A stretch of 64,000 nt of DNA from Mustelus asterias. Taxonomy: Eukaryota. Positions within the stretch are counted from its first letter, which is position 1; the number at the start of each line of letters is the position of its first letter. Shown here in pieces: positions 185-55,860 of this stretch. Below the pieces are notes generated by a model that was not told the origin of the DNA, ran no database searches, and was given only the letters and a program-made list of their open reading frames with translations. The position numbers were made by a program, and so were the translations under genes. The stretch spans positions 310,001 to 374,000 of the forward strand of contig NW_027590264.1 of the NCBI RefSeq assembly GCF_964213995.1. The letters are read 5' to 3'.

Positions 185-575
185 AGCAAAGGCACTCTCA
201 CCTCCTCTCACTCAATCAGGTCTGTGAGCTGGGTTGTGAACTGCTAATATAAATGAAACCATATTATACAGATCAGTGAGTTCGAAAGATCACATTTTGG
301 TCCATTTCTCTTTCCATAGTTTCCTCATTTTCTGTTCACTTCTCCTATGAAGATTAAACTTTTCTATTTCTATTTGCTTCTCACTCATTGCAGTTTACAT
401 CTTCCTTCTTTCTTCTTCTCCATCTCTGTTTTCATCTCTCTTCATTTCTGACCGAATTTTAATAATTAGATTCTATATTTTATTTTGCTCATTTCCTTTG
501 ATAATGGACTTTTTATAATCCCACTCACTCTGCCGATACTCCGGACTCAGCAGAGTTGCTCTCGTAGTCTGTGCA

Positions 576-735
576 GGTTTTTGTATGGGCTCACCCTGTG
601 TTTGTCACACTGTGGCTCACAGCACAGAGATAGGTGGCAGTGTCAGTAACTCGGAATCTTTCTGTGTTCCCGCTGTATCTACTTCTCTGACACAGAAACT
701 CCAGAGACCCACTGGGATACTGACGGTACCAGAAT
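576..735 (-). pseudogene. Chimeric 5'-truncated V fragment with intact 23-RSS
   Basis: Minus strand reads FWYRQYPSGSLEFLCQRSRYSGNTERF-RVTDTATYLCAVS; CACAGTG (608-614), 23 nt, ACAAAAACC (576-584); no FR1 or leader. Confidence 0.85.
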
Positions 736-794: not shown

Positions 795-1550
795 TCAGAC
801 ATTTGGTCTCTGCACAAATACAGAAAGACCTGGACAATATTCAGGTTTGGACTGATAAGTGGAAGCAACGTTCAGGTCACACAGGTTCCAGGCAATGACC
901 GTCTCCAAAAGAAGAGGATCTGACGAACTTTCCTTGATATTCAAAGGCATTACCATCGCTGAATCCTCCCCTCTGCTCCCCCCCTTCCTCTTCCTCTCCG
1001 TTTCTGGAGGTTTTTTATCAGTGTGACTGCGCTGGTGTTTCCGCAGGTTGGCTAACCGAGTGAATCCTTTCTCACACTCGGGGCAGGCGAATGGCTTCTC
1101 CCCAGTGTGAACTCGCTGATGTGCCAGCAGGTTCGATGGGTGAGTGAATCCCATCCCGCAGTCAGAGCAGAGGAACGGCCTCTCTCCGGTATGAACTCTC
1201 CGGTGGTTCAGCAGGTTGTATGAATGAGTGAATCGCTTTCCACAGTCAGAGCAGATGAACGGCCTCTCCCCGGTGTGAATTCGCTGATGTGTCACCAGAC
1301 TGGATGACTGAGTGAATCCCTTCCCACACACGGGACAGGTGAACTGTCGCTCCCCAGTGTGATTTCGCCCGTGAGCTTTCAGTTCAAATGGGTAACTGAA
1401 TCCCTTCCCACAGTCCCCACATTTATAGGGATTTTCTCCAGAGTGAACGTGCTTGTGTTTCAACAGGCCAGATGATCGGCTGTAGCCTTGTCCACGCTCA
1501 GAGCACGTGTACGGTTTATCCCCACTCTTAACGGTGCTTTTACCTTCCAT
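795..1550 (-). CDS. C2H2 zinc-finger ORF (5 intact + 1 degenerate finger); C-terminus runs into a repeat fragment
   Basis: CxxC...HxxxH repeats with HTGERP linkers; tail [15 protein letters not shown] also occurs at 25559-25774 and 50031-50246 with no fingers. Confidence 0.85.
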
Positions 1551-4096: not shown

Positions 4097-5525
4097 TCCC
4101 GCACAGGATCATAAACAAAATATCAAAACAAAACACAACACTCAACACGAACAGCTGAGCCACAGTTGAATTTTTAACTTGCAACTATACTAAAAATACA
4201 TTTACAGTTCCTTAACTCACGCTTCAACCTTTGATAACATTTTCTTGCCTGTGTGAATTATTGTGCAGCACTTTCACCATCTTCACTCTCCTTTTCAACG
4301 TCTCTTTGATCAAAGGGTCTATTTGATCAGAGTATTTTGCTGCCTAAGGGACAGTTTATATTGGCATATACATTTCGCAAGGTTATCATTGTGCTATTTA
4401 AAACAATCACTGAGAACAAGTTGCCATCAATGTTCATTCTCATTTTGAATGTCTGTCAAATGTTTTCTGACACAATTCACAACCCAGTGTTTCTCTGTTT
4501 CAATAATCAGACCAGCGACTTCATTCCCACCCCTGGCCCTAACAATATAGCGATTTTCCTCACAAGCACACTGAGAACCTCTCCAATCCAGCTACTCAGC
4601 TATTCGGTCCCACTTTCCATCTACATCACTGATGAAGATTCCGCTTTGTATTGGATCATTTACTAACCCTGACCTTCCTGGTGCGAGACTGCTGGTCCGC
4701 GCTTTGGAATGAACATTCAGCTGCCGCTCCTACAGACAGGCAAATTTATATGATTTCCAATGCGATATTGTTATTGAGTTCAATTCCTTGCAGATAAATT
4801 CTACTTCTCACCACACTGCCTATGGCAGCCACACCCACAGCTTTCCTGTGTTGTTCTCACTCTGACCTGCCTCATCTGTGTTGTTTTATTAGAGATTTTA
4901 TTGTAGATATTGACCTTTGCTGCTTTTTCCTGTTTGGCACCGATTGGATCAGCAGTCCAATGGGGTGGCAAGCTATACTTTCTCTCTGAAAGAGGATTTC
5001 ACAGGCGGCAAAGTTACAAATTGAGGGAAGATCGGATGGAAATATCACAGACTATTCATTATTCTATCACTTGTGAAGTACACGTTTCAACTAAAAATTC
5101 ATCCTCCCGCGCACCGTAGCTGCTATCCCAAACATGATTGATAACAAACTGCTTGACATGTTGCTGTAGGGATGAACATTGTCATTCTCCATGTCAGAAC
5201 AGACCCATCAACACTCAGGGGACCGGTCGGTTCATGGAATAACTGTTGAAGAGGAAAATAATCCCCTGTCGTGGGATGGCCAACTTCACTTTGTTCCTTC
5301 CGTCTCTCCGCCTATGGGGTGAATTGAAGATAAAGGAGCTGTGAGATCATTGGTTGAACTGAAGAACAAAGGAGCTTGAATCCGATTGGATGTCATCTGA
5401 TGATGTTTCCAGCAGTGAACCAATCCACAGGGGCCCGGATGTGACTCCGCCTCTTTCAACTCTTGACTGAAACAATGACATCTCCCACCCGCTCTGGTCA
5501 GATCCGCCCCGAGCTCTCTGCAAAC

Positions 5526-5577
5526 ATGTCTCCTGTTACTCGGTATTTATTCCTCACAGCGGCAGCTCTGTTAACCG
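5526..5577 (+). pseudogene. Orphan V leader exon (V exon deleted)
   Basis: MSPVTRYLFLTAAALLT|gtaa, homologous to leaders at 9642 and 43032; flanks match the 9.4-11.8 kb unit but the V exon is missing. Confidence 0.8.
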
Positions 5578-6650
5578 GTAATTTCACAAGTTGCTCAAGT
5601 CTGTGTTCCACATCATTACCACACACTATATTCTGTCAGGCAGTTCCTTCAATGCGAGGGGGAGGGGGTCGGTGATGAGGGAACGGATTGATCACAACAT
5701 CGAAAAGTTATCTGGATTTCGCTGGTCTCATCACTGAACACTGTTGGGATTGGGCACATTTCGCCCAGGGATTGATAGGGAATGAGTTGGTCTCAGATTC
5801 CAGCTCCTCTGATACCAGTGAATCACTTTGGCAAACATCACACTTCAAACAGACAGACCGTGAGCAGTTTTTTTGGTCAAACTGAAACACAGGCTAGTAC
5901 AATATAGCAACAGGGCTGACTAACCCTTCAAACACCCAGAGCACGTGTAGACAAAATATTAGACAAAATATAAAACTCCCTCCACATTGTCACACTAAAA
6001 ACTTCCAGGGCAGGTACAGCACCGGTTAAGTAGAGAGTGAAACTCGTGAGCACAGATATTCCCTATAACTCCAGTTGTCACCTGTGACAAGTTGAACTCA
6101 CGGTTCTGCAAGTTTTAGCGAAAGATGAGGTCTTGGTGCGGCGTCTGTGAAACAGCGACTCTCAATGTTGTTAACATTGCTGCATGATATTGCAGGATTT
6201 TTGTGTAGCAGTTTATTGTGTGTTTTATTACTTTGATGATACTACTGCATCTGATGCCTCTGTCATTATTTTGATGTTGTTACATTTGACGTTTAGTATT
6301 GATATCAGTGCATTTGTCCCCGTTTCCGGACGCGTCTGCGCCATTAGAACAGGACCTGTTCTGTTGATTAGATGGATGAATTTCCCTGTAATAAGCTCAT
6401 AAATCCAGAACTGACCAGTCTGGATTGTTCACTTCGAAAGAACGGAAGTCTTGGACGGTCGCTAAGAATCAAACACGTATACCAACGAAATTTAAATAAG
6501 CCAATGTATCAGGGAGTGTTTTTTATGTTTCTACTGAAGGTTAGTCTGCAAGTTTCATTGTGATAAATAATAAAATATGTTTTAATTCCATTATGTTAAT
6601 CGCAAGCAGAACGTTTTATATCGATATTGCTTGAATCATGCTCACATCTG

Positions 6651-8286
6651 TGGACAGAAAGGATCGAGCATGTGGACATAAAGAAAGAGGATGTGTTGGA
6701 ACTATTGAATGGCATCAAGGTTGGTAAGTCGCCGGGACCGGATGGGATGTACCCCAGGTTACTGTGGGAGGCGAGGGAGGAGATTGCGGAGCCTTTGGCG
6801 ATGATCTTTGCATCGTCGATGGAGACGGGAGAGGTTCCGGAGGATTGGAGGATTGCAGATGTGGTCCCTATATTCAAGAAAGGGAACAGGGACAGCCCGG
6901 GAAATTACCGACCGGTGAGTCTAACCTCAGTGGTTGGTAAGTTGATGGAGAGGATCCTGAGAGACAGGATTTATGATCATCTAGAGAAGTTTAGTATGAT
7001 CAAAAGTAGTCAGCACGGCTTTGTCAAGGGCAGGTCGTGCCTTACGAGCCTGGTTGAGTTCTTTGAAAATGTGACCAAACACATTGACGAAGGAAGAGCG
7101 GTGGATGTGGTCTATATGGACTTCAGCAAGGCGTTTGATAAGGTCCCCCATGCAAGACTTCTTGAGAAAGTGAGAGGGCATGGGATCCAAGGGGCTGTTG
7201 CCTTGTGGATCCAGAACTGGCTTGCCTGCAGAAGGCAGAGAGTGGCTGTGGCGGGGTCTTTCTCTGCATGGCGGTCAGTGACCAGTGGAGTGCCCCAGGG
7301 ATCTGTTCTGGGACCCTTGCTGTTTGTCATTTTCATAAATGACCTGGATGAGGAAGTGGAGGGATGGGTTGGTAAGTTTGCTGACGACACCAAGGTAGGT
7401 GGTGTTGTGGATAGTTTGGAGGGATGTCAGAAGTTGCAGCGAGACATAGATAGAATGCAAGACTGGGCGGAGAAGTGGCAGATGGACTTCAACCCGGATA
7501 AGTGTGTGGTGATCCATTTTGGCAGATCCAATGGGATGAAGCAGCAATATAATATGAAGGGTACCATTCTTAGCAGTGTAGAGGATCAGAAGGACCTTGG
7601 GGTCCGGGTCCATAGGACTCTTAAATCGGCCTCGCAGGTGGAGGATGCGGTCAAGAAGGCGTACGGCGTACTGGCCTTCATTAATCGAGGGATTGAGTTT
7701 AGGAGTCGGGAGATAATGCTGCAGCTTTATAGGACCCTGGTTAGACCCCACTTGGAGTACTGCGCGCAGTTCTGGTCACCTCATTACAGGAAAGATGTTG
7801 AAGCCATTGAAAGGGTGCAGAGGAGATTTACAAGGATGTTGCCTGGATTGGGGGGCATGCCTTATGAGGATAGGTTGAGGGAGCTTGGTCTCTTCTCCCT
7901 GGAGAGACGAAGGATGAGAGGTGACCTGATAGAGGTTTACAAGATGTTGAGAGGTCTGGATAGAGTAGACTCTCAGAGGCTATTTCCAAGGGCTGAAATG
8001 GTTGCTACGAGAGGACACAGGTTTAAGGTGCTGGGGGGTAGGTACAGAGGAGATGTCAGGGGTAAGTTTTTCACTCAGAGGGTGGTGGGTGAGTGGAATC
8101 GGCTGACGTCGGTGGTGGTGGAGGCAAACTCGTTGGGGTCTTTTAAGAGACTTCTGGATGAGTACATGGGATTTAATGGGATTGAGGGCTATAGATAGGC
8201 CTAGAGGTGGGGATGTGATCGGCGCAACCTGTGGGCCGAAGGGCCTGTTTGTGCTGTGGCTTTCTATGTTCTATGTTCTATGTTCT
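6651..8286 (+). mobile_element. 5'-truncated CR1-clade LINE (HER1-like), open reverse-transcriptase frame
   Basis: GKSPGPDG, YRPVSL, DFSKAFD, GVPQGSVLGP, FADD motifs; (TTCTATG)n tail; ATCTG at both ends (6646-6650, 8287-8291). Confidence 0.95.
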
Positions 8287-9447: not shown

Positions 9448-9641
9448 TTCTAATTCTGAATTGGAATTGGTGAGACTGAATTTTATTATTTGAAGCCAAT
9501 TGGATGTCATATGATGAGGTCGGCAGCAATGAACCAATCAATAGGGGCCCGGATATGACTCAACTTCTTTCCAACTCTTGACGAAAACAATTTCATCTTT
9601 CAACCCTTTCTGGTCACATCCACTGCGAGCTCTCTGCAAAC

Positions 9642-10581
9642 ATGTTTCCTGTTACCCTATATTTATTCCTCACAGCAGCAGCTCTTTTAACTGGTAAGTT
9701 CACAAGTTGCTCAACACTGTGTTTCACATGTTTCCCTCACACTATATTCTGTCGGGCAGTTCGTTCAGTGGAAGGGGGTGAGGGGAGGTGATAGGAGGAT
9801 TGGCTTGATCCCAACTTCGAATAGTCATTCGGATCTCGCTGATTTCAACACTGAACACTGTTTGATGGCAGCCGACACATTTCCCCTCAGGGAATGAGAG
9901 AGGACGAGTTAGGCTGAAATTCAAACTTCTCTGATAACAAAAAATGATTTGACAATCACTAGACTTTCAAACACACAGACACTGAGCAATTTCCCGTTCC
10001 AGTCACAGGGAATGAAGGCGAGGAACTAATCTCGTTAGAAAGTACAGGATGTTTATGCTGGAAGTTTTATTTCATCACCGCCAGCACCTTCCCGTTCCAG
10101 CCACTGAACTGTGAAAAATATGCTTCTGTTCAGCCGTCTGATTTCTCTCTAAGGTTATGTTCAGGATGACGAGCAAGTCCTGGGGGAAACAGAGTGCAGG
10201 CGCATTGTGTAACTTAATATTCCTTTGTGTTTTTACAGGGCATTGTCGAGGAGATTCTGTTTCACAGACACCTGCAGTCTCCGTTACTGAAGGAGTCAAT
10301 GTAAGGTTGTTCTGTAATTATTCAACTACAAGTGCGAGCACTCTATACTTGTTCTGGTACCGTCAGTATCCCAGCGGATCCATGGAGTTCCTGCTGCAGG
10401 CAAACAAATACGGCGGAAACACAGGGGGATCCTCAGGGGACCGTTTTTCAGCGGAACTCAATGATACAACCCGCACCGTCCCGCTGAAAGTGTCTAAAAC
10501 AGAGCTGGCAGACTCCGGGGTTTATTACTGCGCTCTGAGACCCACAGAGACACAGAGCTGGGCTGAACCTGTACAAAAACT
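9642..10581 (+). CDS. TCR V gene (leader 9642-9693, V exon 10239-10542, RSS 10543-10581)
   Basis: MFPVTLYLFLTAAALLT|gtaag; DSVSQ..LFCNY..WYRQYPSGS..YYCALRP; CACAGAG + 23 + ACAAAAACT. Confidence 0.93.
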
Positions 10582-15039: not shown

Positions 15040-15495
15040 GGTTTTTGTACGGTGACTCCCGTCTTTCCTCTCAGTGTGGGCTCTATCGCACAGTAATACA
15101 GAGCGGTATCCGCGCTCCCACTGTTTTCAATAATCAACTGGCCCCATTTGCCCGCAGTGGAAAGTTCCAATTCGAATCGCTCCTTTCTCTCTTTGCCATC
15201 CGAGAATCCGCTTATTATCCACTTCAGACCCTGACCGGGTTTTTGCCTGTACCAATCCATTCTGTAAAAGCTGGAAATGTCATAACTGCAGTTTATCAGC
15301 ACCGAATCCCCGCTCTGGACTGTTCTCGCTGTGGGAGTTTGTGAAACTTGGTCCGAGCGACACCGATCTGTAAAAACATTCAGACAATGAGGCACTGGAA
15401 CAAAATGAATATCAGTAAACAGTCTCTATAGGTTACAGAGTAAATTTCCTGCGCTTACAAATTGGTAGAACCATAATGACAAGGCACAGATACAT
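15040..15495 (-). CDS. TCR V gene, RCRSD family (leader 15459-15495, V exon 15079-15367)
   Basis: MYLCLVIMVLPI|gtaag; INCSY..WYRQKPGQGLKWI..YYCAIEP; CACACTG + 23 + ACAAAAACC. Confidence 0.93.
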
Positions 15496-17948: not shown

Positions 17949-18752
17949 ATGGAGAAACCTTGGAAATGTGGGGACTGTGGTAAAGGATTCAAGTCTTTAT
18001 TCCGACTGGAAATCCATCAACGCAGTCACACCGGGGAGAAGCCATTCGTCTGTTCTGTGTGTGGGAAGGGATTTACCAAGACAACATACCTGATGTTACA
18101 CCAGAGAATTCACACTGAGGAGAGGCCCTTCAGCTGCACTCACTGTGGGAAGAGGTTCAACAGCACATCCAGCCACGCGACACACCAGCGGATTCACACT
18201 GGGGAGAAGCCGTTCACCTGCTCTGTGTGCGGTGAGAGATTCACTCGGTCATCCGGCCTTTGGACACATCAGCGAATTCACACTGAGGAGAAACCGTTCA
18301 GCTGCACTTCTCGTGGAAAGAGTTTCGGGCAGTCATCCACCCTGACTGCTCACCAACGCACTCACACCGGGGAGAGACCGTTCACCTGCTCCGTGTGTGG
18401 GAAGAAATTCTCCCAGTCATTCGATCTGGTGAGACACCAGCGACTTCACACCGGGGAGAGACCATTCACCTGCTCGGTGTGTGGGAAGGGATTCGCTCGG
18501 TTATTCACCCTCCAGTCCCACCACCGCACTCACACTCAGGAGAATCCATTCAGCTGCAGTACCTGTGGAAAGAGTTTCAAGCAGTCATCCAACCTTCTGA
18601 CTCACCGACGCACTCACTCTGGGGAGAGGCCTTTCACCTGCTCCTTGTGTGGAAAGGCATTCACAAGGTCCTCCAGCCTGCTGAGACACCAGCAAATTCA
18701 TCATAGACTGCAAGGATTGGATTCTGCTTTTAACCACAGCCAGGATCGATAG
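17949..18752 (+). CDS. C2H2 zinc-finger protein, 9 tandem fingers (5th degenerate)
   Basis: HTGEKP/HTGERP linkers; CACCATGG start context; own stop; degenerate fingers upstream at 17790-17940. Confidence 0.9.
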   Translation: MEKPWKCGDCGKGFKSLFRLEIHQRSHTGEKPFVCSVCGKGFTKTTYLMLHQRIHTEERPFSCTHCGKRFNSTSSHATHQRIHTGEKPFTCSVCGERFTRSSGLWTHQRIHTEEKPFSCTSRGKSFGQSSTLTAHQRTHTGERPFTCSVCGKKFSQSFDLVRHQRLHTGERPFTCSVCGKGFARLFTLQSHHRTHTQENPFSCSTCGKSFKQSSNLLTHRRTHSGERPFTCSLCGKAFTRSSSLLRHQQIHHRLQGLDSAFNHSQDR

Positions 18753-22641: not shown

Positions 22642-23013
22642 ATGCTCCGAATTTACAGATTCTCTTTGCTGTTTTCCTCTCTGATCTGCACGGGAGTGAC
22701 TGGAGCAGATGAGGTGACGCAGCTCCCTCTGCGGAAAGTTGTCAGTGAGGAGATAACCGTATCCATAAACTGCACCACGACCACTGCGTTTAACAGCTTG
22801 TCTTGGTACAGACAGTCCCCGAATCAGCCACCCCAGCATCTGGTGATGGCCACAAGAGAACCCGATCAAAGCGGGAGGATCACTGCCTCAATCGGTGGAG
22901 GCTACAAATTCAGTGCCCTGACTGTGAGAGACGCCGGAGTTACAGACACTGCCACCTATCTCTGCGCCGTGAGCCACAGTGTGACAAACACAGGGAGAGC
23001 CCATGCAAAAACC
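22642..23013 (+). CDS. Single-exon (intronless leader+V) TCR V gene, RSS 22975-23013
   Basis: MLRIYRFSLLFSSLICTGVTG-ADEVTQ..INC..WYRQ..TYLCAVS in one frame; CACAGTG + 23 + GCAAAAACC. Confidence 0.9.
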
Positions 23014-23334
23014 TGCACAGACTGCGAGAGCCACTCTGCTGTGTCTGGAGTATCGGTAGAGTGAGTGATGTGATTACAAAAAAAAATCCGTAAAGAAAGG
23101 AAATGAGCGCAACACAAAATAAAACATACAATCTAGTTATTAAAATCCCGCTAAAATGAAGATAGTTGAAAACAGATGGAGAAGAGGAACGAGGGAACAT
23201 GTAAACTAGACTGAGTGAGAGGAAAACAGAACATAGGAAAGTTCAGTTATCATAGGAGAAGTGGACAGAAAATGAATAAACTGTTGAAATAGAAATGGAA
23301 GAGATTGGAAAGTGTGATAGACAGTTTAAAAATC

Positions 23335-23547
23335 TGTCTGTTATTCTGAGGACAGCGACTGAGTAACAGAATCTCCATGACTCAGATCTGAAAAACATGT
23401 TCGAACGGAAACAGATCAGACCGACTGAATCCGTAAAATTCAGTTCAAAAACAAGTTAGTAAAATTAAAGTGAATATGAAATCCGTTTGGTCCATAAGTA
23501 CCTGTCAGGAAGGTTCCCCGCACAATCCAGATGCTGAGTAGCAGCAT
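23335..23547 (-). pseudogene. Leader (23502-23547) plus V stub cut by duplication breakpoint
   Basis: Copy of 21914-22127. Confidence 0.8.
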
Positions 23548-24060
23548 CGTTGTTGTCTGCTCTGTAAAAGGGGAGTTGGATATTTGCAGACACCCTTTCC
23601 AAACTTCACCCTGTATATGTTGCTGCCGTGTCTCGGGGTGCTCTCACTGCATTTCCCTGTGTCCGCGGGGGTGCTGTGGGGTTGGCAGCTGGTGAACTGG
23701 CTGCAAGTGAATGGATTCACCCCGAGCTGGGTTCACTCAGTGTTCTGATAGGGCGAATGGTTCCCTAGTTAGACACGTGGGAAGAGATTTGTAACCGGAA
23801 ACATGGGGTCACTGATGGGGTTTATTTATTCCGGCTTCAATTCTTCATCTCCGATTCCAGTAGAATCGATGTCAGTGAATGTGGGCGGATAAAACCCGAG
23901 TCTCAGCTTCTTTCATCAGTTCAACAGAGAGACGCTTCAGTTGGACACGAAGCAGGCGTTTGACTCCTTGTAAATTCTTCCGAATATTAAACCCAGGTCC
24001 TGGTTCTGATCTGAACTCCCCGGACAATTACTTCAGCAGAAATTTCATATGATCTGAAAA

Positions 24061-24432
24061 ATGCTCCGAATTTACAGACTCTGTTTGCTGTGTTTCGCTC
24101 TGACCTGCACGGGGGTGACTGGAGCAGATGAGGTGATGCAGCTCCCTCGGCGGAAGGTTGTTAGTGAAGGGGGAACCGTATCCATGAACTGCACCACGAT
24201 CACTACATTTAGCAACCTACATTGGTACAGACAGTCCCCGAATCAGCCACCCCAGCATCTGGTGATGGCCACAAGAGAAACCGATCTACACGAGAGGATC
24301 ACAGCCTCAATCGGTGGAGGCTACAAATTCAGCGCCCTGACTGTGAGAGACGCCGGAGTTACAGACACTGCCACCTATCTCTGCGCCGTGAGCCACAGTG
24401 TGACAAACACAGGGAAGTCCCATACAAAAACC
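24061..24432 (+). CDS. Single-exon TCR V gene, RSS 24394-24432
   Basis: MLRIYRLCLLCFALTCTGVTGADEV..TYLCAVS; CACAGTG + 23 + ACAAAAACC. Confidence 0.9.
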
Positions 24433-27035: not shown

Positions 27036-27513
27036 GGTTTTTGTACGGGCTGACTGTGTCTCTGGAGCAGTGTGGGGCTCAGCGCACAGTGATACACGGC
27101 AGAGTCAGAGACATGGACCCCGGTGATTGTTAAAGGAACTGTTCTCTTGTCTTTGTCCAATTCAGCCGAAAACCGGTCAGGGAAATCTGGAGACTTTTCC
27201 CCCTGTCCCTTGCCGTATTTCTTCAGTAAATATCTCGGAGCTTCCCCGGGATATTGAATGTACCAGAAGAGAGTCTCGCCAGTCGTGTATTTTGTTGTGT
27301 AGTTGCAGTTCAATATTACCGTCTGCCCTTCCTGGACCGTGAATTCGGGCCGGTCCTGGGAAACTGAATCTTGGCCATTGGTTCCTGTAACAACATATAG
27401 AATGTGTGAGAAATCTGAGTGAATATAACCCATGAAACACACACTGAGGATTTGAGCTCAGACTCACCGGGCAGCATGACCATTATTATCAGTAAAGCAC
27501 ACAGGGAACACAT
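27036..27513 (-). CDS. TCR V gene (leader 27468-27513, V exon 27075-27384)
   Basis: MCSLCALLIIMVMLP|gtgagt; LNCNY..WYIQYPG..VYHCALSP; CACACTG + 23 + ACAAAAACC. Confidence 0.93.
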
Positions 27514-40821: not shown

Positions 40822-41379
40822 ATGAAGCTCAGCTTCGCTTCAGTGATCATCTCCCTGGATTTCTTACTCTTCCCTCAGTGTAAGTGTGGTCGCTATTTCT
40901 GACAGCGATATTTCACACATTAGCGATGCTATGTTCTGTTAAATAGTATTCTGTTTTGTTGTGTTATCTTGTATTATGCGTTCAATTGTACTTCATTGTG
41001 CAACATTGTATTGCAGTATGAGATTTTAATTTTATGATGTTGTTGCATATCTACATATCCTTCCCAGGTGCCGCTGGTAGTGAAGAGGTATCACAGTCTC
41101 CAGAGTCTGTGGTGGTTACCGAGGGAGACCTAGCATCGTTGAACTGTTCCACTACAGCAGCTGGACTGGTCCTACAATGGTACAGACAATACCCGGACCG
41201 AACCGTGCAGCACCTGGTGAGCGGAACCAGCGATCAGGGCAGGATCAGGGCTCGGAACATTGTTGCAGAGAAACGCAGCGTTCTGAGTGTCGGCGACACT
41301 CGGGTGACAGACACTGCTACCTATTTCTGTGCGGTGGGCGCACAGTGTTGTAAAGATCAATACGAGTCGTACAAAAACC
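40822..41379 (+). CDS. TCR V gene with short CDR2 (leader 40822-40879, V exon 41068-41340)
   Basis: MKLSFASVIISLDFLLFPQ|gtaagt; LNCST..WYRQ..TYFCAVG; consensus CACAGTG + 23 + ACAAAAACC. Confidence 0.93.
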
Positions 41380-42102: not shown

Positions 42103-43032
42103 GGTTTTTGTACAGGTTCAGCCCAGCTCTGTGTCTCTGTGGGTCTCAGTGCGCAGTAATAAACCCCGGCGTCTGCCAGCTCTGTTTCAGACATTTTCAG
42201 CGGGACGGTGCGGGTTGTATCATTGAGCTCCGCTGATAAACGGTCTCCTGGGAATCTCTCTTTGTTCCCGGTATATTTGCTTCTCATCAGTAGATACTCC
42301 ATGGATCCGCTGGGATACTGACGGTACCAGAATAGGTAATAATTGTCAATGCTTGGAGTTGTATAATTACAGAATAGCTGAACATCATCTCCTTCACTCA
42401 CTGTGACTGCAGCCGGGATCTGTGAAACTGGATCTCCTCCACATTGTCCTGTAAGAGCCAAGAGTAATGCGAAATTAAACGATGTCAGTTCACTTTGTTT
42501 AATGGCCGGATTCGGCCCGTCACCCTGGCCAATAATCTGAAAAATGAATCACAGCATCGAAACAGGAACATAAATCCCGCAACACGCAGGTTGTAACGGG
42601 AACGTGTTTGTCGCGGTTAAACGACACTCCGTTTAATGAACACCTTCGAAGGAGATCAGATCCTCGCCTTCGTTTCACGTTATTTGATGGGGAAACTAAA
42701 CTGTCCGTGGGTTTTCGATCTCGGGTTTGTCAAAGCTTTCATCCAGATTTTATCAAGTTTGTCAAAGTCCCTCAGCGGCTCCGGCGGGGCCTGCAATCCC
42801 ACCTTAACTCTTCACTCTCATTCAGCTGAGGTATTTTGCCTCCTCCCTTGGTAAGACAAAGATGATTCTAATTGATATTAGAATCAATATATATTTTACC
42901 AGTGTGTTAATCGAACTGCTCAATTGAATGCAGTGAATGGTAAATATGTGAAACGCAGAGTTTGTAACTTGTGAACCTACCGGTTAGTAGAGCTGCAGCT
43001 GTGAGCAATAAGCACAGAGTCACAGGAGACAT
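42103..43032 (-). CDS. TCR V gene (leader 42981-43032, V exon 42142-42448)
   Basis: MSPVTLCLLLTAAALLT|gtagg; LFCNY..WYRQYPSGS..YYCALRP; CACAGAG + 23 + ACAAAAACC. Confidence 0.93.
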
Positions 43033-43824
43033 GTTTGCAGAGAGGTCGAGGAGGATGTGAGCAGAGAGGGTTGAAGTTGAAATTGTAATTGTCAAGAGCT
43101 GGTGAGAAGTTGAGTTACATCCGGGCCGTTGTTGATTGGTTCATTCCTGACAACGTCATTCGTTGACATCCAACCGTAGAATTCCATTGTCTTCAAATGA
43201 CCCAATCAGCGCTCGGCTCCCTTGGCTCTCAGCGTCGGGAGAAATAAAGGGGACCTGGACAGGGATGAGACCCAAACTTGTCCATTTAATCACTTCAACC
43301 TGTAAGGCGGAGTGAGAACAGGAAGTCGGTTAATTTTATTAATTTTTAAACTGTTCTCTTCCTTTTATTCCTGTATTGTCTTTCTTATCCACCTCCTACT
43401 CTTTCCCCTTTCCTTATCTTTTCTCCACCTTTGCTTCCCTTTCTCCCCGTTTTCACCTCTCTCCCACCAATTTTACCTCTCTCCCACCAATCTCCCTCCT
43501 CCCCCCTTATCTTCATCTGTCACAGCTTACCCTCTGATTTCAGCTTCTCTGCCGTTTGGCCATTCACACCTACTATTTCCACTGGTGTCTTCCACCGTGA
43601 AGACTGATGCAAAGTAAATATTCAGTTCCTCTGTCATTGCTTTGTTTCCTATTATTACTTCTCCAGCCTTATTTTCCAGTGGTCCAATGACTACTCTTTG
43701 CCTCTCTCTTACCTTTTATATCTTGAAAAAAAAATTCTTTCTATCTACTTTTATATTACTGGCTAGCTTACACTCATATTTCATCTTCTCCCCCCTTATT
43801 GTTATTTAGTTGCCCTCTACTCGG

Positions 43825-51374: not shown

Positions 51375-51746
51375 GGTTTTTGTATGGGACCTCCCTGTGT
51401 TTGTCACACTGTGGCTCACGGCGCAGAGATAGGTGGCGGTGTCTGTAACTCCGGCGTCTCTCACAGTCAGGGCACTGAATTTGTAGCCTCCGCCGATTGA
51501 GGCTGTGATCCCCTCGTGTAGATCGGTTTCTCTTGTGGCCATCACCAGGTACTGGGGTGGCTGATTCGGGGACTGTCTGTACCAATGTATGTTGCTAAAT
51601 GTAGTGATCGTGGTGCAGTTCATGGATACGGTTCCCCCTTCACTAACAACCTTCCGCCGAGGAAGCTGCATCACCTCATCTGCTCCAGTCACCCCAGTGC
51701 AGGTCAGAGTGAAACACAGCAAAGAGAATCTGTAAATTCGGAGCAT
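51375..51746 (-). CDS. Single-exon TCR V gene, RSS 51375-51413
   Basis: MLRIYRFSLLCFTLTCTGVTGADEV..TYLCAVS; CACAGTG + 23 + ACAAAAACC. Confidence 0.9.
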
Positions 51747-54405: not shown

Positions 54406-54745
54406 TCTGATATAAACCCCACACTGACACCAATCTCCTCCTGTCTGATATAAACCCCACACTCACACCAATCTCCTCCTGTCTGATATAAACCCCACAC
54501 TGACACCAATCTCCTCCTGTCTGATATAAACCCCACAGTGACACCAATCTCCTCCTGTCTGATATAAACCCCACACTCACACCAATCTCCTCCTGTCTGA
54601 TATAAACCCCACACTGACACCAATCTCCTCCTGTCTGATATAAACCCCACACTGACACCAATCTCCTCCTGTCTGATATAAACCCCACACTGACACCAAT
54701 CTCCTCCTGTCTGATATAAACCCCACACTGACACCAATCCCCTCC
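54406..54745. repeat. Minisatellite, 38-bp unit x 9
   Basis: TCTGATATAAACCCCACACTGACACCAATCTCCTCCTG at 54406, 54444 ... 54710. Confidence 0.95.
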
Positions 54746-55376: not shown

Positions 55377-55860
55377 TCACTTGTGAACTTGCTGGTGTGT
55401 CAGCAGGTGGGCGAGCTGACTGAATCCCCTCGCACACACTGAACAGGTGAATGTCCTCTCCCGGGTGTGAATTAGCTGGTGTGTCAAAAGGTTGGATGAA
55501 GTTGTGAATCCTTTCTCACACATGGAACAAACGAATTGTCTCTCGCCAGTGTGAACTCGCTGGTGTGTAAGTAGGTTTGATGAATTAGTGAATCGCTTCT
55601 CACACACAGAGCAGGTGAATGGCCTCTCCCTAGTGTGAACTCGCTGGTGTGTCCGCAGCTGGGATAACTGAGTGAATCCCCTCCCACAAACAGAGCAGGT
55701 GAATGGCTTCTCTCCAGTGTGAACTCTCCAGTGTATCAGAAGCTCAGATGACTGAGTGAATCCCTTCCCACACACACAACAGGGGAACGGTCTCTCCCCT
55801 GTGTGAAATCGCTGTGTCTCAGCAGAGTGGTTGACTGAGTGAATCCCTTCCCACATACAG
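55377..55860 (-). pseudogene. 5'-truncated C2H2 zinc-finger gene (5 fingers)
   Basis: HTGERP/HTGEKP arrays; fused at 55861 to the duplicate of 36062; 3' flank homologous to that of the 17949 gene. Confidence 0.82.

Follow-up and report, generated by a model that had tools for sequence, protein, structure and literature searches.

How can a T-cell receptor V segment without a leader intron come to lie among V genes that all possess one, and still be usable for rearrangement? This question is raised by a stretch of 64,000 nucleotides from the shark Mustelus asterias (the window), which from its sequence appears to be a portion of an array of T-cell receptor alpha/delta V genes. A split leader has been called "found in all AgR genes" (PMC12227049). 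An RSS scan followed by translation identified 21 V-like ends on both strands of the window, comprising three genes that read leader and V domain in a single frame, 13 other intact genes, and five that are cut or broken. A phase-1 leader intron was present in all 13 of the other intact genes, in agreement with the initial annotation. These introns were placed by script in 12 genes (83–545 nt), with the second-ranked model of 91 nt taken for the gene at 15078 (minus strand), and an exon of 52 nt and a GTAGG donor were read by eye in the gene at 42141 (minus strand). The explanation favored here, for which a probability of about one half is estimated, is that the single-frame genes represent a clade whose leader intron was lost precisely and in a single event, via a reverse-transcribed, spliced germline V transcript.

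Each of the three copies (Table 1) was read as one open frame of 111 codons that extends from the initial methionine through a leader of 21–22 residues and the V domain to YLCAVS. Copy 2 is a tandem duplicate (1419 bp) of copy 1. None of the three has an AG at the position of a phase-1 acceptor, and the codons at the junction are ACG GGA, ACG GGG, and ACT GGG in copies 1, 2, and 3, respectively. The motif TTTACAG at 22652–22658 in copy 1 would be a phase-2 acceptor, to which a leader exon of the usual phase 1 could not be spliced. When ATG..GT..AG models were searched for by brute force, no upstream leader exon was detected for copy 1, and copies 2 and 3 yielded only low-scoring phase-2 models. 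Directly 3′ of CAVS, all three copies carry a CACAGTG heptamer, a 23-nt spacer, and a nonamer, which is ACAAAAACC (consensus) in copies 2 and 3 and GCAAAAACC (one mismatch) in copy 1. The V-set hallmarks C44, W55, Y106, and C108 were invariant in 13 of 13 aligned sequences, and the best TCR matches in PDB were alpha chains. The predicted leader contains a basic n-region, an 8-residue hydropathy peak of 2.25–3.34, and small residues at −3/−1. The three copies thus stand as first annotated, as does the intron of the V gene at 40822, which belongs to the sister family and served as the intron-bearing comparator.

Table 1. Positions in the window of the single-exon V segments, their signals, and the intron-bearing comparator.
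Feature	Position	Strand	Details
Copy 1, single-exon leader + V-alpha segment	22642..22974	+	111 codons; lost-intron position between 22693/22694
Copy 1 23-RSS	22975..23013	+	CACAGTG, 23 nt, nonamer with one mismatch
Copy 2 core promoter (putative function), GC-box + TATA-like element	23883..23894	+	Comparable stretch in subfamily B; undetected in intron-bearing sister family
Copy 2 5′UTR (putative)	23931..24060	+	RNA contigs (presumed RNA) colinear from 23964; homologous to sister-family 5′UTR
Copy 2, single-exon leader + V-alpha segment	24061..24393	+	Lost-intron position between 24112/24113
Copy 2 23-RSS	24394..24432	+	Heptamer and nonamer consensus
Copy 3, single-exon leader + V-alpha segment	51414..51746	-	
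Copy 3 23-RSS	51375..51413	-	Heptamer and nonamer consensus
Broken fourth member	324..653 (chimera 324-700)	-	V 3′ end, RSS, and 3′ flank only, behind 10543-type V piece
Sister-family V 40822, intron-bearing comparator	40822..41379	+	Exon 1 40822-40879 (58 nt); phase-1 intron 40880-41067 (188 nt); V exon; RSS from 41341

Of 1168 candidates in a search of the genome (G000), 150 were scored, and these gave 152 matches. At least 67 matches, among the 150 listed, align from residue 1–3 through the V domain at 57% identity or higher; below these, among the matches listed, identity falls to 40–48%, which corresponds to the intron-bearing family that includes the gene at 40822. Some pseudogenes recur unchanged on several contigs, which points to haplotype duplicates, and the numbers of matches therefore do not equal numbers of copies. 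The fetched loci provided 57 distinct intronless coding sequences, which form subfamilies A (the window type), B, and C. Of these, 44 are open and in register, with a single register common to all and an AG at the junction in none, which extends to the genome what had been claimed for the three window copies. A CAC-heptamer and a nonamer with at most one mismatch follow 38 of the 44. The initial annotation had also regarded synonymous variation at the junction as a sign of coding DNA. The codons were as it described, but the argument is weak because leader dN/dS was 1.2–1.9 within subfamily A and fell to 0.59–0.71 only between A and B; leader dN/dS was accordingly rejected as proof of coding within subfamily A. 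Figures for subfamily C, which included one misfiled B copy, were left out.

About 14 subfamily B copies lie in tandem at 19363800–19397250 of contig C71, with a spacing of about 2.46 kb, and differ mainly in CDR1. Subfamily C (L054 1596–2015, L055, L089, and L090) is located directly 3′ of a 10543-type promoter, a leader exon whose start codon is lost, a 157-nt intron, and the first 26 codons; homologues of this upstream block occur in the window at 9524–9713 (+), 5410–5597 (+), and 42978–43149 (-). The intronless V of subfamily C may have captured the promoter of another family and regained a 5′UTR intron, most simply if neighbouring genes were fused by a deletion. In subfamily A, a lineage of pseudogenes found on several contigs (L061, L092–L094) has its leader out of frame, retains V and RSS, and shows a longer A-run at the start codon. 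The broken fourth member in the window is a chimeric pseudogene that joins 10543-type FR2-CDR2 in frame with the last 13 codons, the RSS, and the 3′ flank of the intronless family.

A protein search with a single intronless sequence gave no match, an alignment-based protein search returned only the proteins P0002 and P0004 and one distant match, and no relatives were confirmed in metagenome scans. In a full-library search, P0002 and P0004 matched residues 1–110 at 62–64% identity, and PF07686 was detected on both. P0004 is a gene model of the bamboo shark Chiloscyllium punctatum, and P0002 is an ORF from JGI/IMG whose frame continues from leader and V through the RSS; such ORF calls are intron-blind. 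In a tree of 43 V domains without leaders, from which chicken TRAV1 was absent, 15 intronless loci formed one clade with P0002 and P0004 (support 96/96). This clade was nested within a larger one (93/86) that contained eight intron-bearing sister genes, two Callorhinchus proteins, and one Scyliorhinus protein.

Rearranged TCR-alpha clones of the nurse shark labelled aV9.1 (PMC5931798, partial text and source data) begin at the predicted mature V end. By eye, 7 of 19 of these rows have the FR2/CDR2/FR3 signature of the intronless clade and 1 of 19 has that of the sister family; the label is thus a mixed bin. In the available portion of the paper, the main text does not contain the word "intron", germline BACs are given only for alpha-V4, and exon structure is not described. 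This comparison by eye suggests that the clade is already among published nurse shark clones, where it was not recognized as intronless. Taken together, the tree, the bamboo shark protein, and the nurse shark clones indicate that the clade is probably old, occurs across distant sharks, and is used in alpha chains. No earlier description of an intronless shark V emerged from a literature search, which covered the shark TCR locus papers incompletely and may therefore have missed one.

Transcripts were sought in runs X1–X4, which belong to one study of a related organism (A), apparently form two near-duplicate pairs, and are guessed to be RNA, none being on record as such. Their contigs, which represent orthologues in organism A, were compared with copy 2 of the window at 80% likeness. 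They cover copy 2 from 23964 to about the V end. Among 32 listed contigs, at least eight cross the junction with 39 or more letters on each side, and no splice joint is listed; splicing of an upstream leader into TTTACAG or another acceptor was not seen. As a positive control, one joint in X3 (27383–27467) skips 83 nt with CT..AC ends and coincides with the predicted leader intron of the V gene at 27074 (minus strand). Furthermore, X1 and X3 covered 17–18 of 30 bins, and X6 and X8 covered 30 of 30, which is DNA-like behaviour. Since the contigs are colinear and the control is spliced, the leader of the mRNA is the single-exon leader, at least in relatives.

The loose ends of contigs beyond CAV translate as J (KLIFG in X2, KLVFGSG in X3/X4), and another loose end of the copy 2 contigs represents the beginning, in colinear form, of a leader of subfamily B. 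The KLVFGSG J matches a genomic J array of 13 places in G000, and at both of the loci read there, a 12-RSS is present and 34 nt separate FGxG from the donor, the spacing of J-alpha (PMC10322711, partial text). Provided that the contigs are RNA, as guessed, relatives of the intronless V segments are rearranged to J-alpha-type segments and transcribed. Of the colinear leader-V-(D)J-C transcripts by which the initial annotation proposed to check its claim, the portion up to J was seen in a related organism, and the lack of rearranged use that would have spoken against the claim was not observed. The C region was not seen in the copy 2 contigs of X1–X4, C-alpha was not located, and a J-alpha pattern gave no matches in two further stretches of contig C546. 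One contig of X3/X4, at a depth of about 3, continues through the RSS into the 3′ flank and may represent germline transcript or DNA. By all signs to hand, the intronless family appears functional. At L080 1460–1730, J-alpha-type segments recur in tandem at a distance of only 180 bp.

Comparison with the sister family addresses how the intron disappeared. The intronless leader and V align without gaps over the junction with spliced sister genes, at low identity, as is expected of the exact intron removal of a retrocopy. The 5′UTR of subfamily A can be aligned with that of the sister family over about 130 nt. Against a null of 1200 real genomic segments, all seven subfamily A queries matched sister 5′UTR plus exon 1 (p ≤ 0.004, four above the null maximum), whereas the sister intron gave p values of 0.05–0.44. 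Subfamilies B and C did not reach significance against the sister family (five of five queries, p > 0.07), two of seven control V genes reached p = 0.007 against sister 5′UTR plus exon 1, and profile HMMs of the intronless and sister families did not detect each other at E < 10; the similarity is thus modest. Because subfamily A matches sister 5′UTR plus exon 1 but not the sister intron, the change is best regarded as a loss of the intron, which likely occurred once. The leader does not discriminate between exon and intron origin, since its last 30–45 nt are equally near to the end of the sister intron (identity 0.37–0.45) and to the end of sister exon 1 (0.38–0.48; codon-shuffle p 0.09–0.13). 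Unrelated exon 1s score equally high against it at the protein level. An in-frame likeness of the 'LRIY' type, noted by eye, of the leader start to the end of the sister intron was disregarded, its local z staying at 2.3 or below.

Outside the gene, no homology of subfamily A with the sister family was detected 5′ of about −130 or more than about 40 nt 3′ of the RSS. The span in between would correspond to an unrearranged transcript and fits a cDNA. On the other hand, subfamilies A and B also have short flank homology to each other, and the missing flank homology to the more distant sister family needs no insertion because these flanks also decay. The promoters differ: a CRE-repeat promoter (sites of the TGA[CT]GTCA type) is present in eight of eight sister loci and in none of 15 intronless loci. 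A GC-box/TATA-like core is common to A and B, and about 250 nt of 3′ flank are common to A, B, and C. A proposed resemblance of the subfamily A promoter to the 49726-type V promoter (local z about 5) was rejected, as a profile search gave E values of 7.5–8.5. Neither a poly(A) tract nor a target-site duplication was seen in the 3′ alignment of 12 intronless and five sister loci, although age could have erased both.

According to the preferred reading, an ancestor of the 40822 type would have made a sterile transcript from the 5′UTR through the RSS, which would have been spliced and then reverse-transcribed in the germ line. The cDNA would have replaced its parent by recombination or been inserted elsewhere in the V array. 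Its RSS would have been preserved and usable by RAG because the template was unrearranged. Segmental duplication would then have generated subfamilies A, B, and C, and the predicted product is an ordinary TCR-alpha chain, whose mRNA would still be spliced because rearrangement leaves the J-C and C introns in place. The read-through contig of X3/X4 may resemble the germline transcript that such a course requires. A fuller version is put forward more tentatively, with the balance against it: that the spliced sterile transcript was reverse-transcribed in the early shark germ line and, still bearing an intact RSS, returned to the TCR-alpha array, where under a new promoter it founded a major working V clade of distant sharks alongside the parent family. 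The initial annotation had also proposed loss through cDNA. Loss as the direction of change is supported by the tree and the match to the sister 5′UTR, but the cDNA step is less secure, given the missing poly(A) tract and target-site duplication and the undiscriminating leader. Its assertion that the locus is rich in LINE reverse transcriptase was not sustained, since a motif scan and tblastn, of low sensitivity for other LINE clades, found a single fragment in the window, near 7143–7742 (+). This fragment, which we take from its motifs to be CR1/L2-like, lies within, or close to, the long gap that follows the leader-like exon at 5410–5597. Reverse transcriptase acts in trans.

The nearest competitor to a cDNA intermediate is a genomic deletion in place, which is possible though doubtful. 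A germ-line double-strand break would have removed the intron without an RNA intermediate, either exactly, via AG|G-type microhomology at donor and acceptor, or inexactly, by fusing the start of exon 1 to an in-frame, pyrimidine-rich intron end. The retained 5′UTR, ATG, and RSS are explained equally well in this way, no retro-scar is present, and the C-terminal part of the leader resembles exon 1 and the intron end to the same degree. Fusions of the deletion type exist in the locus (the 614 minus-strand fragment and subfamily C), and both sister junctions have CAG near the cut. However, a deletion between the CAG repeats of the present sister genes, which lie one base out of step, would shift the frame, and the register from junction to V is identical to that of the spliced product and aligns without gaps. 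The different promoter is likewise not explained by deletion alone.

Exonization is improbable. The old leader exon would have been abandoned, an ATG in the pyrimidine tract of the intron would have started a new signal peptide, and the acceptor AG would have decayed. Leader-intron 3′ ends of the sister family (L039–L047; window 41014–41067) are open in frame with V, hydrophobic, and signal-peptide-like, in six of eight a Met lies in frame no more than 18 codons from the acceptor, and the intronless leader DNA resembles a pyrimidine tract one base from the acceptor. Yet the sequence 5′ of the ATG matches sister 5′UTR (seven of seven in subfamily A, p ≤ 0.007), none of 12 comparisons with the sister intron was significant, and no relic exon or donor was found upstream of the window copies. 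Gene models also read through sister intron ends, and the chimaera model P0054 possibly does so too. An ancient intronless state shared by descent with chicken TRAV1, through one early loss or an intron gain in the sister family, would account for a single-exon, rearranging V in both, but is very unlikely, as the clade nests among cartilaginous-fish sequences beside an intron-bearing family (in the tree without chicken TRAV1) and the phase-1 intron is universal in the other intact window genes.

Rearranging single-exon V genes are already known from chicken TRAV1, and the shark clade belongs to that kind. According to the accessible text, leader and V share one exon in 45 of 48 chicken TRAV1 genes and in most TRGV1 genes, and both groups rearrange (PMC10972964). 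They have in common with the shark clade an unrearranged single-exon V, an RSS, many copies, and V-J use. In contrast to chicken TRAV1, for which mostly low-scoring RSSs and low splenic use are described there, most open copies of the shark clade have near-consensus RSSs; moreover, its intron-bearing sister family survives alongside, so that the loss can be traced. The shark clade is probably independent of chicken TRAV1 in origin. In marsupial TCR-mu, V-mu-j also lacks the leader intron, for which the papers propose retrotransposition and name, as the alternative, germ-line rearrangement combined with deletion of the intron (PMC2275272, PMC6170632, both in part). Both the chicken and the marsupial precedent were named in the initial annotation and agree with the cited papers. 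V-mu-j comes already joined to D and J and makes no use of an RSS, whereas the shark copies are unjoined and keep the RSS directly after CAVS; any cDNA template must therefore have been an unrearranged transcript. Like canonical TRAV/TRDV, the shark copies have a Cys23/Trp41/Cys104-type framework, an L-PART2-like G-V-T-G, a 23-RSS, and joining to J-alpha; unlike them, they have no phase-1 intron between L-PART1 and L-PART2 and thus no split leader. Human V-beta-6, in the part of PMC2119020 available, concerns Alu insertions and not intron loss, and none of the accessible passages of duck, newt, and Nature 2023 papers describes a new single-exon V.

Exceptions to the split leader are thus chicken TRAV1/TRGV1 and marsupial V-mu-j, and the sharks add a second, probably independent exception that is expanded and expressed, indicating that the leader intron is dispensable. 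To our knowledge, there is no earlier case with parent and derived V families side by side. Because the two families adjoin, the mechanism of loss and the effect of the intron on V usage are testable. In shark genomes, V-finders that require an acceptor AG would overlook this clade or model it wrongly. No new receptor type or function is implied. If retro-insertion is true, retroposition would be a source of new RAG-competent V segments, for which the parent family provides a control.

Two further features were observed in the window. C2H2 zinc-finger linker repeats (HTGEKPF) occur among the V genes at 1109–1277 (-), 18027–18447 (+), and 55721–55805 (-), and a tandem repeat of 38 bp at 54439–54732 contains an RSS-like heptamer at 54534.
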